Source of the DNA: a virus
Lineage: Duplodnaviria > Caudoviricetes
Virus record (IMG/VR): IMGVR_UViG_3300037781_000042
Coordinates: 128,001 to 192,000 of that record
Reading direction: 5' to 3' (one strand)
Length of the DNA stretch: 64,000 nucleotides
Shown: one piece after another, positions 48,447 through 57,080 of the stretch
Layout: each line of letters starts with the position of its first letter
How positions within the stretch are numbered: the first letter of the stretch is position 1
Program-made: the position numbers and the translations under genes
Notes under the pieces: generated by a model
Told to the model about the DNA's origin: nothing
Seen by the model: the letters and a program-made list of their open reading frames with translations, nothing else
The model's database searches: none

Positions 48447-49985
48447 TTACAAAGATTCCAGAAGTTCAGTTCTTTCTTCTACCATATTTTCTAATTGGTC
48501 CATATCAAAACCCAAAATATTAAAATGTACTTGTGCTTTTAATTCATCTAGTTTTCTTTTTAGATATACTATTTCTCCAATGCTACCCGTCTCATTAATA
48601 GTGAAATTTATTTCAACAACACAACTAGACGGGAGAGTTGATAAAAATTCAAGTATTGTCATCGTTGGAATGTCTTTAATTTGAATATGTTTTAACGTTT
48701 GAATATTGATATTATCTAATAAATTTTTATCATTGTCTATTCTTAAACAGCTATGAATAATTAAATTTTCTAAATCAATTTCAATTTTTGGGTTAATTTT
48801 AATTTTATTATGTCCAAAACCGATACGGAAAGTATTAATTTTAGAAGGAAATTGTTTAAAATTTAATGTGTAATTAGCTGAGTTTCTTTCTAAAAATAAT
48901 TCACCAGTAATAATATCAGGCATATAATCTATGTAGTCTATTTTATCTAAACTTTCAATCTTCAAGTTTTTTAATTTTTTAGGAATTCCTTTAAAAGAAA
49001 AAGGATTTTCATTTACTCTTTCATATCCAACCCCTCCTCTAATAATCAATCTATTATTAGAAGGAAGTCCTTCTAAAGTTTCTAAATTATTTGAATGGAT
49101 TTCAATTTCATTAATAAATTCTACAGAAGAAAGTATATTTAAATCTTTCAACGTTTTACTAAAAAAATGACATTCGCCATGAATATTTTTAATTTTTAAA
49201 TTTTTAAAAAAATCATCTCTTTGATTTCTAATATAAAAGTTATGTAAATCATAAGTGCTGTCTATATTTTTAGTTATTTTTATTTCATCTACATCAATAA
49301 GAATGTCGACCCCACTAAATGACGATATTTCTTCGAACTCTTTATTAAGAATTGGAAAATTTTGATATTCTTGTGGTAATAATTTGCTTAATTTGTTTTT
49401 TGTATATTCAGAATATATCTGATCATTAGGCGCATCCCAAATAGTTATTCCGTTACTATTAGAATGAACTGCCATTTTATATCTTTTAGCATTCGGTGAT
49501 AATTTTTTATTTTGAAAATAGTATAAAGTTCCATTAGGATATACATGATAGTAGAAATAATTTTTACTTTCAGTTGCTGCAGTACACCATTTAGCTCCAT
49601 AGCCGTATTTTATCGAAGATGTTTTATTTAACGGAACTACTATTTTCCATTCTTCATCATCTCTAAGAATCAATTCGTGTGATTTTACGTCTTCACTATT
49701 TCGTATAAATCTATTTGTAATTGCTTCAACATCAGTACACATTTTATGGATAGAAAATTCTTGGTATGGATTATACATGTTATACTTATTTCTTTTATCT
49801 AAATTATACATAGATTTAGTAATAAATTTTATATAAAAATGAGAATATTGGTGTAAATAAAGTTCACAAATAAATATCATATATTTATATGCTTTAAAAG
49901 GAACCGCTTCTTTTAACTTATTAAATTCTTCTTTATTAATCTTTCCGGTTTCTACATATTTTTTTCTAGCTAATTTTAAACTCAT
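48447..49985 (-). CDS. WCTA-domain LRR-like protein (family B), leaderless
   Basis: MSLKLARKKY start; SSIKYGYGAKWCTAA; degenerate LRR C-terminus; AGGAG upstream. Confidence 0.8.
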   Translation of the reverse strand: MSLKLARKKYVETGKINKEEFNKLKEAVPFKAYKYMIFICELYLHQYSHFYIKFITKSMYNLDKRNKYNMYNPYQEFSIHKMCTDVEAITNRFIRNSEDVKSHELILRDDEEWKIVVPLNKTSSIKYGYGAKWCTAATESKNYFYYHVYPNGTLYYFQNKKLSPNAKRYKMAVHSNSNGITIWDAPNDQIYSEYTKNKLSKLLPQEYQNFPILNKEFEEISSFSGVDILIDVDEIKITKNIDSTYDLHNFYIRNQRDDFFKNLKIKNIHGECHFFSKTLKDLNILSSVEFINEIEIHSNNLETLEGLPSNNRLIIRGGVGYERVNENPFSFKGIPKKLKNLKIESLDKIDYIDYMPDIITGELFLERNSANYTLNFKQFPSKINTFRIGFGHNKIKINPKIEIDLENLIIHSCLRIDNDKNLLDNINIQTLKHIQIKDIPTMTILEFLSTLPSSCVVEINFTINETGSIGEIVYLKRKLDELKAQVHFNILGFDMDQLENMVEERTELLESL

Positions 49986-49998
49986 TTCATTCTCCTAT

Positions 49999-51672
49999 TT
50001 AAAATGGTATATTTTCATCTACTTCAATTATTTCTATTTCATAATCTTCATTTTGTACTGCATAGACAGGTTTTTTACCCCATATAGTAGTATACCCTCC
50101 TGATAAAGATAAATCTTCTTCTATCGATTCTTCTATTTCTTCATTTATTTTTTCCGTTTCTTTTTGACGAGGATTAGATAAACGAACACTTCTAATAAAT
50201 GCTCCGTTCATTTTAAAATTGGCTGAAGATTCTATTTCTAAATCTTCAAAACCATTCTTAGATAAATCAGAAATTTCTTTTATTGGATTTCTTTTTAAAT
50301 CTATATTAACACAATATGAAGGCAAATTTTCAACTTTAGTTATTTTATTATTTGCTAAAATAAGATTATCCATTTTATCATTTAGATTTTCTATTTTAGT
50401 TATATTATTATCTTCTAAATTTAAGTAACATATTTTATTTCCTCTAGGTAAATCTATTTGTTTCAAGTTATTGTAATTTACTGTCAAAGCTTTGATATTT
50501 AACGGGATATTTTTTAATGATTTAATTTCGGTATGTTTTAGAAATATTTTTGAAGTAATTTCTAAATCAGTATAATCTATATGTGAAATATTTCCGTGTA
50601 TAATACAAAACTCTCTTACTCTTCCTTTAGGCAACTTCACAGAAAAATTGTGAGTGTTAGAGGGCATATAGTTCACAAATCTTAATTCTGTTTTTAAATA
50701 AACGAACTCTGGTAAATTATCATAAAATTCTTTATCATGAACAATTAAATTTGAGCGACTTCCAAAAAGATATTTTATTTTTATAGGAAAAGAAGACATA
50801 TAAATAGAACTTATAATATCTGACATTTCTTCTGCTCTTTCAAAAATGTCAATTGTTTTGTCATCATTAAATACATATACTAATTGAGTATAATAACTTT
50901 GTAGTTTTTCAATAAAAGAAATTTTAGGACTTAGAGTAAAGTATTTATCTTTTATAAACTCTTCATTTTTATAATCAATTAATCTCAAAGCTTCTACATG
51001 ATTCGCATTAAATTCTTTTAATGTTTCCTTTGCTTTTTCTTCGTTTTCAAAACGAAAAGAATATAGTAGAGAATCGTCTGCGTCCCAAAGTTCAACTAAA
51101 TTTTCTTCATAATCTACTAAATATGCAGTTTTATATTGAGAATCATTATGCATAGGTTTATCTGGAAAATCGTCTAAATCTTTAAAGTGGACATAATACA
51201 AAACACTAGAAGAATTTCTATATTCACGAAATCTGTTACTGTTCTTTGCAGACGTACACCACTTGGTTCCTGCGCCATGTTTAATAGATGCATATTTTGT
51301 ATGAGGAACTACAATTTTTAATTTTTCATTGTCTACTATTACAGTTTCAGAAGTATGCGAATCTAAAGTTTTTAAAATTTTATCATTATATTTCATTCCT
51401 ACTTCAGTTAAGATACGGTTAAATTCATTAAAATTTAACTGATTAATATCTTCTTTAATGTATTTCTTTTTTCTAAATCTATTCCAATGATAAATGTATC
51501 TTGCAAGTTTAGGAATGTCGTGTTCTGTAAAATCGTTTTGTAAATAAAATTTACACATAGCTTCAAGATACTTGTAGCTTTTAGAAGGATCCGCTTCTTT
51601 AAGTTTATTAAAAAGTTTTTTGTTTATTTTTTTCTTAAGTAAATATTTTTCTTTAGCAGTTTTTAAACTCAT
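49999..51672 (-). CDS. WCTA-domain LRR protein (family B), leaderless
   Basis: MSLKTAKEKY; DPSKSYKYLE; ASIKHGAGTKWCTSA; LxLxxNxIxKIENL repeats; ends DENIPF. Confidence 0.8.
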   Translation of the reverse strand: MSLKTAKEKYLLKKKINKKLFNKLKEADPSKSYKYLEAMCKFYLQNDFTEHDIPKLARYIYHWNRFRKKKYIKEDINQLNFNEFNRILTEVGMKYNDKILKTLDSHTSETVIVDNEKLKIVVPHTKYASIKHGAGTKWCTSAKNSNRFREYRNSSSVLYYVHFKDLDDFPDKPMHNDSQYKTAYLVDYEENLVELWDADDSLLYSFRFENEEKAKETLKEFNANHVEALRLIDYKNEEFIKDKYFTLSPKISFIEKLQSYYTQLVYVFNDDKTIDIFERAEEMSDIISSIYMSSFPIKIKYLFGSRSNLIVHDKEFYDNLPEFVYLKTELRFVNYMPSNTHNFSVKLPKGRVREFCIIHGNISHIDYTDLEITSKIFLKHTEIKSLKNIPLNIKALTVNYNNLKQIDLPRGNKICYLNLEDNNITKIENLNDKMDNLILANNKITKVENLPSYCVNIDLKRNPIKEISDLSKNGFEDLEIESSANFKMNGAFIRSVRLSNPRQKETEKINEEIEESIEEDLSLSGGYTTIWGKKPVYAVQNEDYEIEIIEVDENIPF

Positions 51673-51685
51673 TTTATTCTCCTAT

Positions 51686-53344
51686 TTAAAATGGTACCCC
51701 GGCTCTGTCGCAAGTACTTTCACTAAGTGTAATACCCGAATTTACTATAATTTTTTTACTATTTGGTAAAATTAACGTTTCTTCTGCAGTTCTAGGGTTG
51801 GACAATGAAAGTTCAGAAACATCTATATCGTTTATAACTATTTTGTTGTAAGAAAGATTTAACGATTCAAAATTACTATTCGAAAGATTTTCGGGTAAAG
51901 ACTTAATATTATTTTCCATTAACAATATTCTTCTTGTCCATTGAGGAAGATTTTCTATTTTTTCAATTTCATTATCTACTAAATTTAGTAAATTCATTTT
52001 TTTAGGTAACCCTTTAATCTTTTTTATTTTACATTTACTTAAATTAATTTCTTTCATTTTTTCTGGAAATACTACTTCTATTTCATTTATTTCATTAGAA
52101 CTTCCGTTAAATATTTCCAAATGCTGAGTATTTAAATTTAAAAGTGTTTTAATTTTAGTATTTGAAACGTCTAATTTCCAATATGAAATATTTGAAATAT
52201 GTTTTAAATCGTCAATATCAGAATCATGTAAATCCAGATCATATATTAATCCGTTAGAAAAAGATTTCCAATTATCTATTTTTAAATTACCTCCGTATAA
52301 ATATACAGAAGTTATATTTTCAATATTTAAATTTTCAAAATAAATTTCCCTTATAAATAAACTTCTACAAAAACAATTTTTAATTTTAATAGGGTAGTCT
52401 GTTGGAATATAATTATTATATCCAAATACATCTAATGTTCCATCATCATTAAATACTCTATAACTTCCTACTTCGTCAATTATTTCTTTGTCGTATTTGC
52501 TATTTTGTTCTTTATATTTTTCATCAAAATATTTTTCTGAAAAATCTATATAAGATACTGCAAGTTTAATTATATCATGAAAATCTGCTCTATGTGGAGG
52601 ATCTAAAGATTTCCATATTGCTATTTTTTTATAAATTTCTTCTAGATTTTCTTCAGTGTTTTTTGTATTTTCCCAATGTATTACATAAACATTTGAATCT
52701 TCAACATCCCAAAATTTAATATATTGTTCTTCTCTACTAACTTCTGCTGCTAATTTATACAAATTACTATTTGAAGATGGATCGTCTGGATGCCTATCTA
52801 AATATTTAAAATAGAAATAATATAAAACACAATTAGAATTTTGATATTGATTAAATCTGTTATCTTCTGTTCCTGCTGTACACCATTGAGTTCCGTACCC
52901 GTATTTTATAGAAGCAGTATCTGTGTGAGGAATAACTACTTGTATATCATCATTGTTTTCTAGAATAGTTTTTTTATATTTTCGAGTGTCATTTTTTTCT
53001 ATAAATTTAATATTATATTTTTCAAATACTCGAACTAAAATAGTTCTAATTGTATCAGCAGAAAGTTGATTTATATCTTCTTTAATGTAACCCTTTTTTC
53101 TAAACCTATCCCAATGATAAATTAATCTTTCTACCCATTTTATTTTATATAGAGTTAAAAACTTTTCCGGGTAGTGGTCATCTTCATTTATGTAAAAATA
53201 ATAATTTTCATACATATCACACATAGCTTCAAGATACTTATAGCTTTTAGAAGGATCTAGTTCTTTTAGTTTATTGAAAACTTCTTTAGAAACTTTTTTT
53301 GTTTTTAAATATTTTTCTCTAGCAGATTTTAAACTCATTGCCAA
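51686..53344 (-). CDS. WCTA-domain LRR protein (family B), leaderless
   Basis: MSLKSAREKY (second Met); ASIKYGYGTQWCTAG; LRRs; ends AGVPF. Confidence 0.8.
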   Translation of the reverse strand: MAMSLKSAREKYLKTKKVSKEVFNKLKELDPSKSYKYLEAMCDMYENYYFYINEDDHYPEKFLTLYKIKWVERLIYHWDRFRKKGYIKEDINQLSADTIRTILVRVFEKYNIKFIEKNDTRKYKKTILENNDDIQVVIPHTDTASIKYGYGTQWCTAGTEDNRFNQYQNSNCVLYYFYFKYLDRHPDDPSSNSNLYKLAAEVSREEQYIKFWDVEDSNVYVIHWENTKNTEENLEEIYKKIAIWKSLDPPHRADFHDIIKLAVSYIDFSEKYFDEKYKEQNSKYDKEIIDEVGSYRVFNDDGTLDVFGYNNYIPTDYPIKIKNCFCRSLFIREIYFENLNIENITSVYLYGGNLKIDNWKSFSNGLIYDLDLHDSDIDDLKHISNISYWKLDVSNTKIKTLLNLNTQHLEIFNGSSNEINEIEVVFPEKMKEINLSKCKIKKIKGLPKKMNLLNLVDNEIEKIENLPQWTRRILLMENNIKSLPENLSNSNFESLNLSYNKIVINDIDVSELSLSNPRTAEETLILPNSKKIIVNSGITLSESTCDRAGVPF

Positions 53345-54882
53345 GATCCTCTTTTATTATTTAACACTAAATCTTCAATAAAAATATCATTAATTTTAAT
53401 TTTATTTCTGTGTAAATATAATCTATTAAACTGATGAGACATTAAATTTTCAGGAATTTCTTTAATTTCATTGTCATCTAAAAATATAGTATCAAATTTT
53501 AGTGGCAAATACTTTAAATCCTGAATATTATTATTTCGTAAATAAACTTCTCCTACATTATCAGGTAAATTTTTCAAAGATTTTAAATTATTATTTTCTA
53601 ATACAATCTCATCCATTTTATTTGGTAATTTACAATCTATTTTTTCTAAAGGTACTCCATTTGCGTGTATACTTAAAACATTTTTACTAATAAGCTTTAA
53701 AGATTTTATTTGACTCCAATTCAAATTTATTTTAAAGTAAGAAATATCTTTTAAATGATATAAATTTTTAATTTTGCTATTAGTTAAATCAATATAATAA
53801 GTACTTCCTTTTGGAAAACTAGACCATTTATTTAAATCTAAATTGTTAGCTTCTATTTTATAACATTCAACGTTTTCAATATAGTTAGATAAATCATTTA
53901 TCTTCAAATTATTTAAATATAAACCATCTCCTATAAAATTCTTTATTTTTATACAATTTTCTCCTTTCTCTTCAATATATGAATTTAAATCACAATCTCC
54001 ATAAAATTTATCTAATGTTCCATCATCATTGAAAATATATCCTCCATTATTAGGTAAAAGCGTTGCCAAATTATTTTGTTGAATATATTTTTTACTTAAA
54101 AAACGTCTATTGAAAGTTAAATATTTAATTATAGGAACATAAACTTTTTGGAATTCTAGAGAATAATGACGTTCAATAAATTCTTGTAAATCCTTTCTAA
54201 CCTCTTTTGCAGGTTCTTCTAAATCTATACTGTAACAAGTTAAAATTTTATTGTCATTAACATCCCAAAATCTAATTTCATCCTCTTCAATATCTATATC
54301 TATAGCAGTTTTATAATAATTTGAATTTAATTCAGGATTATTAGGATGAGTATCTAAATCTTTAAAGTGAACGTAATAGAAAAAATGACCTGCGTTTTGA
54401 TATTCATTGAATCTATTGGATCTTTTTGCAGCAGTACACCATCTAGTTCCTGATCCGTATTTTATAGAACCCATATCTGTATGCGGAACTACAATTTTGA
54501 ATTTATCGTTATCTACAATAACAGTTTCATGATATTTTCTAGTGTCCTTTTTTTCCATAAATTTAATATTAAATTCATATCCGGTCTCTAAAACTATCTC
54601 TACACATTCATTAAAATTTAATTGATTAATATCTTCTTTAATATAACCTTTTTTTCTAAATCTTTCCCAATGGTAGATAATTTTACTTATAAATTTAATC
54701 CTATGATTCTGTTTAAATGCTTGTGGATAACCGAGATCTGGAGATTTAGTTAAATAGTAGTCACACATTGCTTCGATATATTTAAACGTTTTAGAAGGAT
54801 CATTCTTTTTTAATTCGTTGAAAACTTCTTCAGAAACTTCCCCTGTATCTAAATACTTTTTTCTTGCTGATTTTAAACTCAT
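53335..54882 (-). CDS. WCTA-domain LRR protein (family B), leaderless
   Basis: MSLKSARKKY; GSIKYGSGTRWCTAA; LRRs; AAGGAG upstream. Confidence 0.8.
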   Translation of the reverse strand: MSLKSARKKYLDTGEVSEEVFNELKKNDPSKTFKYIEAMCDYYLTKSPDLGYPQAFKQNHRIKFISKIIYHWERFRKKGYIKEDINQLNFNECVEIVLETGYEFNIKFMEKKDTRKYHETVIVDNDKFKIVVPHTDMGSIKYGSGTRWCTAAKRSNRFNEYQNAGHFFYYVHFKDLDTHPNNPELNSNYYKTAIDIDIEEDEIRFWDVNDNKILTCYSIDLEEPAKEVRKDLQEFIERHYSLEFQKVYVPIIKYLTFNRRFLSKKYIQQNNLATLLPNNGGYIFNDDGTLDKFYGDCDLNSYIEEKGENCIKIKNFIGDGLYLNNLKINDLSNYIENVECYKIEANNLDLNKWSSFPKGSTYYIDLTNSKIKNLYHLKDISYFKINLNWSQIKSLKLISKNVLSIHANGVPLEKIDCKLPNKMDEIVLENNNLKSLKNLPDNVGEVYLRNNNIQDLKYLPLKFDTIFLDDNEIKEIPENLMSHQFNRLYLHRNKIKINDIFIEDLVLNNKRGSWQ

Positions 54883-55020: not shown

Positions 55021-56811
55021 TTAGCCACGGAATTGATCTAGGCCTTCAAGTTCTTTAAATTTATTTATAACTATATCTGCATTTTTTTGATGTATTTCTG
55101 GTGAGATGTCTCCATAATCCTGTGATCCTTTAACACCTCCTTTAGAATTGTTATTTGTTTGATCTACTTTTTCTCCCGATTCGTATTCATCATCTATACT
55201 AAATTTTTTAAGTACATCATGTTTCTTAGATCCTTCTTCTATTCCATATATAAGTTGCATTAAAGCTAAGTAAGTAATCGAGCCTTCCCATATAGAAGCC
55301 ATTAGAGCATAAGAAGCCCAAAATGTAGCAAATGCTAAAGTAACATTTGTAACAGGAACTTTTTTATCTGAAGCAGCGTTTGCCTTTAAAAATTTAGTAA
55401 CAAACGGTCCTACTTGTTTAAGTAAATCTTCAAATGACCCTTTAGTTGTATACTTACCATCTTCATTTAAAACACCATATTCTAATTGTCTTAAAAATCC
55501 AATATCAGTTAAAAGAGAATCATTTCCTAAAATGATTTTACAATATTTTTGAAATTCTTGAATTCCAAAATTCGAAGCATCTAAATTATCAACTCTATTA
55601 TTCCAATAAGAACGTATTACCTGATGTAACCATTTTCTATTGGTAATATTGTGAGTACTATTTGCTTGATTTAAATATTCTTCTGAAAGCATCCAAGAAG
55701 CCCATCCAATAGTATTCATCCCAGGAATAAAATTATCAAAGAAAGTATCATACCATCCTTCTGATTCTTCTGCTACCGACATCTTATAAGGATTTTTTTC
55801 ATCATCGTCATTTTCTAACATATACTTAGAAACATAAGCTTTCATAGAAGTATAATCTTCTATATCTTTTCTTCCTGAAACATTAAATCCTGCATATTGA
55901 TCAAATACTTCATCTATCCAATCTTCTTTAGAATCTCCTGCTAAAATTTCATTCATCAAAGAAGATTCAGTTATAGACTCTCCTAATTTCTCTATTCCTT
56001 TCATGTACTCTTCTACATACTTAAGAGATTTTTGATCGTCTGCAATTCTTATGGTAAACTTTCCTTCTCCTTTAAAACTATCATTTAATTTTCCTAAAAA
56101 AGAAAGTCCTGCTGTTTTAGAAGCAAATAAACCTCCAGCAACAGATTTATAAATATTTTTTATCTTTGTTTTACTAGTACTCTTTTTATGTTTTCCATTT
56201 TCCCAGATTTCTTTAATCTCGTACATGTCTGGATTTCCTCTAAGATAGAAGAATCCCCATACAACCGCGGCTGCCGCTAATACAGTTACCCCTGCAGCAG
56301 TTGTAAAGAAACTAAGAATGGCTTTTCCTCCCATCAATAAAGATCTTCCTATACCTGTCCAAAATCCTGCTCCCCATAAACCAGTAGTAGTTCCAGCAGA
56401 AGTTGCAGCAACAGCAGATTTTACACCTAATGCAGAAAGAGCCTTTGTAAAAATACTTACTTTAGCTGCTCCTGCGGCTGCTGCAGTAGTTCCAACAGCA
56501 AAAGAAGATTTAGCAACAGCAGCGGCTCCTGCTTTCGATATAGCTGAACCAACTAACCATCCCCCTAATTTCTTAAAAGCAAATTTTGCTACCAAACCCA
56601 TTCCTACATAAGTAGTTAATGTCTCAGCAACACTAGTAACCATACTTACATTTGCTGTAGCAGTTTCATCACCACCTATTTCATTTTCTACGTTTAAAGA
56701 TTCTACATCTTCGTCCTCATAGATGAACCCAGAGGTGTTTGTTTCTTTAAGATGATTATTACTATGTCTTTTCGATTCTAAGTCCTTAGAATACTCCGTA
56801 TAATTTTTCAT
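55021..56811 (-). CDS. putative internal/ejection protein with long Ala/Gly-rich hydrophobic region
   Basis: MKNYTEY start; about 130 aa of A/G/V-rich apolar helices; late motif upstream; own terminator. Confidence 0.5.
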   Translation of the reverse strand: MKNYTEYSKDLESKRHSNNHLKETNTSGFIYEDEDVESLNVENEIGGDETATANVSMVTSVAETLTTYVGMGLVAKFAFKKLGGWLVGSAISKAGAAAVAKSSFAVGTTAAAAGAAKVSIFTKALSALGVKSAVAATSAGTTTGLWGAGFWTGIGRSLLMGGKAILSFFTTAAGVTVLAAAAVVWGFFYLRGNPDMYEIKEIWENGKHKKSTSKTKIKNIYKSVAGGLFASKTAGLSFLGKLNDSFKGEGKFTIRIADDQKSLKYVEEYMKGIEKLGESITESSLMNEILAGDSKEDWIDEVFDQYAGFNVSGRKDIEDYTSMKAYVSKYMLENDDDEKNPYKMSVAEESEGWYDTFFDNFIPGMNTIGWASWMLSEEYLNQANSTHNITNRKWLHQVIRSYWNNRVDNLDASNFGIQEFQKYCKIILGNDSLLTDIGFLRQLEYGVLNEDGKYTTKGSFEDLLKQVGPFVTKFLKANAASDKKVPVTNVTLAFATFWASYALMASIWEGSITYLALMQLIYGIEEGSKKHDVLKKFSIDDEYESGEKVDQTNNNSKGGVKGSQDYGDISPEIHQKNADIVINKFKELEGLDQFRG

Positions 56812-56847: not shown

Positions 56848-56872
56848 AAAAAAAGAGACCTTAAGTCTCTTT
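56848..56872 (-). terminator. rho-independent terminator closing the gp47 / gp46-fragment transcript
   Basis: AAAGAGAC-TTAAG-GTCTCTTT plus U run, abutting the stop codon at 56871. Confidence 0.8.
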
Positions 56873-57080
56873 AATATTGTATATTTGCATACTCTTTAAA
56901 TTTCTTTTCTAATTCAGGATCATCAAACTTTATACTTATCATAGTATCTGGATGAACGCATTTCCCATGACCATTTTTTCCTGTCAGTAGGTTTAAAGAT
57001 CCGGTTTTTTCGAATTTAATTGATTGTGAATTGTTCCCGTACGGTCCAATATTTCTAAATTCAAGTTCTTCTATTTGCAT
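56871..57080 (-). CDS. gp46: N-terminal fragment of gp46/SbcC/Rad50 ATPase fused to a split-intein N-fragment
   Basis: MQIEELEFRNIGPYGN...LNLLTGKNGHGK is a Rad50 N-terminus ending in Walker A; directly follows gp47; continues CVHPDT then stops. Confidence 0.88.
   Translation of the reverse strand: MQIEELEFRNIGPYGNNSQSIKFEKTGSLNLLTGKNGHGKCVHPDTMISIKFDDPELEKKFKEYANIQY
56874..56960 (-). mobile_element. split intein N-fragment (29 aa)
   Basis: CVHPDTMISIKFDDPELEKKFKEYANIQY: intein block A C-x-x-x-D-T placed where the Walker A S/T is expected. Confidence 0.82.

Follow-up and report, generated by a model that had tools for sequence, protein, structure and literature searches.

The analyses described here identify, in the 64,000-nucleotide stretch of phage DNA that was studied (the window; bases 128001-192000 of a 211,581-bp IMG/VR contig of 27% GC that CheckV rates 82% complete), a 69-aa open reading frame, hereafter the stub, that joins the first 40 residues of a gp46/Rad50-type protein to a Cys-initiated tail of 29 residues and then stops. 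As judged from its sequence, the tail is the N-fragment (IntN) of an atypically split class-1 (Cys1) intein. We lean towards the view that the stub is the N-half of a fractured gp46, to be trans-spliced with a remotely encoded intein C-fragment (IntC) fused to the rest of gp46 (gp46C) into a Rad50-like ATPase. Trans-splicing with a remote partner is likely in our assessment. The data establish what the two parts of the stub are, that it is intact, conserved and under selection, and to which family it belongs, whereas we infer that the partner exists, where it is encoded and that the two are spliced.

The stub reads M...GKNGHGK↓CVHPDTMISIKFDDPELEKKFKEYANIQY followed by TAA (the arrow marks an extein-intein junction). 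Its residues 1-40 (MQIEELEFRNIGPYGNN...LLTGKNGHGK) match the N-termini of Rad50/SbcC proteins (phrog_77, E 7.5e-4; PF13476, E 7e-4) and our own HMM made from four phage gp46 proteins (E 1.8e-9), and align with the N-termini of gp46 proteins whether these are intein-less, split or interrupted by a contiguous intein. Walker A, GKNGHGK, occupies residues 34-40 and gp47 lies directly upstream, as expected of a gp46/Rad50/SbcC N-terminus; the Ser/Thr after the Walker A lysine is absent because the intein follows that lysine. The coiled coil with its zinc hook, the signature motif, Walker B and the D-loop were found neither in the stub nor in the ~274 kb of this phage that were searched. A terminator-like hairpin overlaps the stop codon, and terminator-like sites number two in the stub region against 0.5 expected. 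The anatomy given by a reading made from the letters alone (the sequence-only reading), namely 40 residues of Rad50 as far as GKNGHGK, a 29-residue tail, a stop and a terminator, is thus borne out by the ORF, the HMM matches and the hairpin. On the upstream side, a single nucleotide separates the TAA of gp47 from the ATG of the stub, and a Shine-Dalgarno-like GAAGGA lies within the 3' end of gp47, 6-11 nt before that ATG, for which reasons the two genes are probably co-transcribed and translationally coupled. On the downstream side, the place that a homing-type endonuclease gene (HEG) and gp46C take in relatives is occupied by the gene for a 596-aa protein, 51% identical to a 558-aa protein at the same position in the relative L017; its N-region is Ala/Gly-rich and apparently membrane-spanning.

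Table 1. Positions of the features discussed, in window coordinates unless a contig is named
Feature	Position	Strand	Basis or remark
gp47 (Mre11/SbcD-like nuclease), intact, 356 aa	57082..58152	-	phrog_100, E 2.6e-53
Stub, 69-aa ORF	56871-57080	-	
gp46/Rad50 N-extein (residues 1-40, the last being the Walker A lysine)	56961..57080	-	phrog_77, PF13476, custom gp46 HMM
Predicted intein N-fragment (IntN), 29 aa, Cys1...Thr6, strands b1-b2 and helix a1	56874..56960	-	alignment A4, phmmer against P0186, profile A3, P0186 model
Stop codon of the N-fragment	56871..56873	-	identical stop in independent contigs
Intrinsic terminator-like hairpin and T-run	56852..56872	-	9-bp stem, 3 pairs G-C, loop of 3, tail TTTTTGTGAAT
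596-aa protein, no family match, not Rad50	55021..56811	-	no PHROG/Pfam match, none to gp46/IntC profiles
Four tandem paralogues, predicted LRR-protein family	48447-54882	-	
Two further LRR paralogues, in an extension	L219:5623-10004		
Fractured uvsX/RecA, outside the window	G000:C1:192521-195884 (= L101:2521-5884)	-	
DNA polymerase, palm/thumb half, 408 aa, beside uvsX	G000:C1:195860-197083	-	
DNA polymerase, exonuclease piece, 248 aa, past the contig's right end	L213:2291-3037 (Ga0394806_000153, about 33.4-34.1 kb)		PF10108
gp46 C-half locus of a relative	L170:1-2566 (Ga0209777_10004130)		

Contiguous gp46 mini-inteins at the same site can be aligned with the tail over their first 24-29 residues, Cys41 and Thr46 being invariant across 15 split and contiguous homologues (alignment A4), and the intein profile A3 matches stub residues 44-67. 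The best contiguous match, P0186, pairs with the stub in phmmer at 3e-17, the tail being aligned as CVHP.T.I..KFDDPE.EK.F (intein start CVHPRTNITVKFDDPEVEKLF, against CVHPDTMISIKFDDPELEKKF in the stub), and itself scores above the Pfam Intein_splicing cut-off (37.4 vs 35.8 bits). AlphaFold, given an alignment of 21 contiguous homologues, modelled the P0186 intein as a HINT domain (pLDDT 97.3). Among solved inteins, which the model matches at probability 1.00, VidaL (6vgv) has the best TM scores (0.80/0.81) and NrdJ-1 the lowest E-value, NpuDnaB and gp41-1 coming next. In this model the first strands take up residues 2-12, helix a1 residues 15-21 and a loop residues 22-27; since the stub stops after intein residue 29 and the C-half in split relatives starts at the end of the loop, the split falls after helix a1 (S2). 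Among the atypically split inteins found in nature, the N-fragment measures 15-37 aa and ends either after b2 (S1), as in VidaL and PolB16, or after a1 (S2), as in AceL-TerL and GOS-TerL (PMC13014065). The 29-residue fragment had been called atypically short, but it falls inside this range and is therefore typical of a rare class, not exceptional. The insertion point lies between the Walker A Lys and Ser, because the site has the sequence GTNGKGK-SSLLESIDF in a homologue without an intein; this homologue and the contiguous GK↓C...SHN↓S inteins agree with the P-loop K↓S/T that had been named as the insertion site.

The relatives hold what the window lacks. In IMG/VR, homologues 36-59% identical to the stub end 25-58 residues after the Cys, and each has, about 1 kb downstream on the same strand, an ORF of ~650 aa whose first ~122 residues carry blocks B (TxxH), F and G (HN), recognisable as ...SPDH..., ...DLxDLxV... 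and ...SHN, and which continues, after the junction SPDH...SHN↓S with its +1 nucleophile, with S(S/T) and the gp46 remainder, including the zinc hook, signature motif and Walker B. The halves are separated by a free-standing endonuclease gene in which YW..KGYSEEEA modules recur. With the C-fragment as profile, an exhaustive search gave 140 representative proteins (50% clusters, E<=1e-30), about fifty of them IntC-gp46C proteins of 633-670 aa and about twenty contiguous proteins of 709-751 aa with a mini-intein of 139-188 aa at GK↓C...SHN↓S; the contiguous mini-inteins include those of P0052, P0095, P0164, P0174, P0182, P0186, P0187, P0193, P0194 and P0200. The gp46 site presents a natural series, from contiguous inteins through those split with an HEG to those split without one, the last with halves 40 bp apart in, for example, L023, L166 and L186. 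All 10 N-anchored IMG/VR loci have either a C-half 0.04-1.5 kb downstream or a contiguous intein gene, and among about 80 C-anchored metagenome loci an adjacent N-half is present in nearly all that have enough upstream sequence. The non-adjacent layout of the halves is the exception among the relatives. One C-half in a relative (L170) is preceded by an opposite-strand GIY-YIG-like endonuclease gene and a TnpB gene, with no N-half in the 2.5 kb upstream of it, which suggests that mobile elements can separate gp46 halves. The 348-kb record L020, whose C-half stands at the contig start, contained no N-half when searched for one.

The same short ORF (67-72 aa, 67-70% identical, always GKNGHGK↓CVHPDT) occurs in four more protein clusters (90% clusters); with that of the stub itself, all five clusters preserve the frame, the length, Cys1 and Thr6. 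An adjacent C-half is absent from the window and likewise from L017 (a 17-kb contig) and L018 (7 kb), and the order gp47, stub, 596-aa gene is kept in L017. Among these three, pairwise dS is about 0.9-1.7, and dN/dS of the stub ORF is 0.14-0.26 over 64 codons with near-saturated dS, the N-extein giving 0.14-0.18 and IntN 0.17-0.38 where computable. With such ratios at a dS of about 1, the decay expected of a pseudogene did not occur, which argues that the stub is functional and under purifying selection, the dN/dS values being supportive rather than decisive.

The search for the C-half was extended beyond the contig. Two contigs of JGI sample 3300037601, Ga0394806_000153 (193 kb) and Ga0394806_000609 (56.6 kb), reach 57.6 kb beyond its right end and 49.1 kb beyond its left end, respectively; because the two extensions do not overlap, the genome measures at least 318 kb, and CheckV's 82% overrates the completeness of the 211.6-kb contig. 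Many pond-metagenome runs of 2019-2020 contain the phage. Walking recovered 45.4 kb and 17.2 kb of the extensions (62.6 kb), which encode a topoisomerase, a DNA-polymerase exonuclease piece, ligases, glycosyltransferases and paralogues of a leucine-rich repeat (LRR) protein, so that ~274 kb of the at least 318-kb genome were searched and at least 44 kb lay beyond reach. In the window and the whole 211.6-kb contig, PF13476, PF02463, PF13558, PF14890 and phrog_77 found the stub only, without an IntC or gp46 remainder, and six-frame searches of the contig (hmmsearch --max with gp46, IntC+gp46C, IntC and whole-intein profiles) returned only the stub and the IntC of uvsX. The statement that the window holds no C-terminal gp46 or IntC is thereby confirmed for the contig as well. 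The 62.6 kb of recovered extensions contained no gp46C, and the IntC-Rad50 ORF that the sequence-only reading had expected in the rest of the genome did not turn up in the ~274 kb. Neither did a separate intact gp46, which that reading had set against its own proposal, nor was another Rad50/SMC-like ATPase detected in the sequence searched. Exact 38- and 41-mers from the extensions are absent from IMG/VR. Among the matches listed in protein databases (IntC+gp46C, IntC alone and the exhaustive profile), no IntC-gp46C protein could be traced to the samples or contigs of this phage, and a metagenome search with an IntC pattern gave no Ga03948xx-sample contig among the matches listed. Individual candidates were set aside: P0013 and P0015 belong to other phages; a cluster look-up of 30 candidate C-halves led to no contigs matching this phage; and P0277, promising by amino-acid composition and contig number, comes from a phage of 35% GC without a nucleotide match and has its own N-half just upstream of its C-half.

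A complete fractured gene is present in the same genome, namely uvsX/RecA. Its N-half ends LLLAGDPG↓CLHPDQEIEVYIGKSENFKDLTKL and a stop, with an IntN of 24 aa (CLHPDQEIEV...); its C-half comprises a 166-aa IntC ending NHN↓TGKT and the RecA portion (PF00154); and between them lies a gene for a 471-aa endonuclease with GFSEEEAKEEI repeats and a Vsr-like C-terminus. At least one essential recombination protein of the phage therefore evidently depends on trans-splicing of the atypical kind. This IntC is related to the gp46 intein family (E 9e-14 vs profile A3). In the uvsX C-half ORF the alignment to the whole-intein profile begins at residue 24, where the string H-CEKNTKKIKIKDLIEK resembles the vestige of a block A and might reflect a partial duplication of the N-region.

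In the predicted assembly of gp46, the stub would be translated just after gp47 from the same transcript, which would end at the hairpin; the peptide would dock into an intein C-fragment of ~120 aa fused to the remaining ~530 residues of gp46; and the reassembled HINT domain would excise itself and join K40 to Ser+1, restoring GKNGHGK-S(S/T). The C-half would most likely lie in the unread part of the at least 318-kb genome, apart from the N-half. A remote partner is supported by the complete system of the relatives (N-half, optional HEG, and an IntC of ~122 aa ending ...SHN↓S[ST] fused to gp46C), by the contiguous mini-inteins at the identical site GK↓C...SHN↓S, by the anatomy of the stub and its coupling to gp47, by the four further clusters that hold the same short ORF, by the purifying selection at dS about 1 between the window, L017 and L018 and the gene order kept in L017, by the complete fractured uvsX of the same genome, and by the incompleteness of the 211.6-kb contig; it is weakened by the failure to find IntC-gp46C in ~274 kb or to link one to this phage among the database matches listed, by the adjacency of the halves that is the rule in N-anchored IMG/VR relatives, and by the small basis of the dN/dS values (64 codons, dS near saturation). 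Of the earlier proposal that the gp46/47 nuclease is assembled by trans-splicing from separate loci, the identity of the stub as a conserved gp46 N-extein plus IntN stands, whereas its partner ORF was not found in the ~274 kb.

The main rival reading, less easily reconciled with these data and in our estimate doubtful, is that the stub is an orphan remnant, the C-half together with any endonuclease gene having been lost or replaced in the ancestor of the clade, so that no Rad50 is made and gp47 acts alone or with another ATPase. The absence of a partner from ~274 kb and from the database matches listed would fit such a loss, as would the unrelated 596-aa gene at the HEG/gp46C position; but frame, length, Cys1 and Thr6 have been kept in five lineages with dN/dS of 0.14-0.26 at dS about 1, gp47 is intact and tightly coupled to the stub, no alternative Rad50/SMC-like ATPase was detected in the searched sequence, and at least 44 kb of the genome lie outside it. 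That the genome has no C-half anywhere and that the stub is selected for some other role, for example as a decoy or modulator of the uvsX IntC or of gp47, appears improbable to us; if true, this would be the first split-intein half with a solo function. A particular form of this idea, which we hold to be highly improbable, is that the IntN peptide is kept for a new function such as competing or cross-reacting with the uvsX IntC or binding gp47. Purifying selection without a visible partner would be explained, the IntN peptides of uvsX (CLHPDQEIEV...) and gp46 (CVHPDTMISI...) share C-x-H-P-D, and the profile match given above relates the uvsX IntC to the gp46 inteins; however, the two peptides differ after their first five residues, a chimera of gp46N and UvsXC would have a garbled P-loop, and the idea, which no measurement favours, is less parsimonious than a remote partner in unread sequence. 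Finally, a chimeric join or a false stop cutting short an ordinary gp46, for which nothing speaks beyond the missing C-half, can be dismissed, since the 69-aa ORF, with identical sequence and identical neighbours, is carried on 13 contigs (several JGI pond-metagenome assemblies and Logan assemblies, many samples), other phages have short ORFs homologous to it, and Logan contigs of the independent runs X7 and X9 (run X2, a possible source sample, being left out of this evidence) bridge the ORF end, the terminator and the next gene with 0 differences, joints or indels, which settles the contiguity at the break and excludes misassembly.

The proposed trans-splicing of gp46 with a remote partner is worth comparing with known systems. 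AceL-TerL, GOS-TerL and Cat-TerL are natural atypically split inteins of phage terminases (Thiel 2014; Bachmann and Mootz 2015; via PMC11766414 and PMC13014065), and the known atypically split inteins also include VidaL and PolB16 (PMC11766414, PMC13014065, PMC10189870). Like the stub, the three terminase inteins, all from uncultured phages, have Cys1 and a short IntN (25-37 aa there, 29 here) split after the first alpha-helix (S2), and their large C-fragment exceeds 100 aa, as in the relatives of the stub; they differ in the host protein (TerL vs the Walker A K↓S of gp46/Rad50) and in the +1 residue (Cys vs Ser in those relatives). The comparison with AceL-TerL drawn earlier therefore holds for the split site, but structurally, by the P0186 model, the family is nearest to VidaL, NrdJ-1 and gp41-1. 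VidaL, the best structural match to that model, is likewise atypically split, Cys-dependent and of environmental phage-like source, but it is split after b2 (S1) with an IntN of 16 aa (PMC13014065) and is only 18% identical in sequence to the P0186 model. The fractured genes described by Dassa, London, Stoddard and Pietrokovski in 2009 (gp41, NrdJ, NrdA, IMPDH and others, with canonical split sites; PMC2677866) resemble the present case in that a phage replication or repair gene is divided between two ORFs, the first ending and the second starting with a split-intein half, and the free-standing endonuclease gene between the halves recurs in the relatives of the stub and in the uvsX of this genome. 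In the window, by contrast, the N-half stands without a neighbouring C-half, and what follows it is not an endonuclease gene but a terminator and the unrelated 596-aa gene. As intein hosts, gp46, Rad50 and SbcC are absent from that paper and from the Novikova 2016 survey. The literature searched contained no account of an intein in gp46, Rad50 or SbcC. The kind of element is already known, and what distinguishes the present one is its non-adjacent partner, which was not found.

A precedent for distant extein-intein halves that are joined by trans-splicing is the cyanobacterial DnaE split intein of Wu, Hu and Liu (1998), the dnaE-n and dnaE-c genes of which reportedly lie far apart on the chromosome; it differs in belonging to a cellular genome, in its canonical split (long IntN, short IntC) and in that both of its halves are known. 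An N-half that is under selection and not adjacent to its C-half would mean either trans-splicing between distant units in a jumbo phage or a new use of a lone intein half. In the former case, trans-splicing between distant transcription units could gate the activity of Mre11-Rad50. For the semisynthesis and labelling of proteins, atypically split inteins whose N-fragment is short are much sought after, and very few natural examples have been characterised. Being large, diverse and both split and contiguous at one site, the family of gp46 P-loop inteins is therefore a rich source of candidate orthogonal pairs, and it offers a natural series for how a mini-intein becomes split; without its partner, the stub locus is of less practical value than the complete loci.

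Two further observations concern the same genome. Its family-B DNA polymerase is divided between two loci separated by more than 40 kb, a palm/thumb half beside uvsX and an exonuclease piece past the right end of the contig (Table 1), and no intein motifs were seen at either break. Downstream of the 596-aa gene, the window carries four tandem paralogues of 512-557 aa, 30-41% identical, with a common N-domain (...GSGTRWCTAAK...) and with leucine-rich repeat tails that are plain in the fully read 515-aa member. Together with the two extension copies, which are of 730 aa, this array is, by prediction from sequence, an expanded LRR-protein family.
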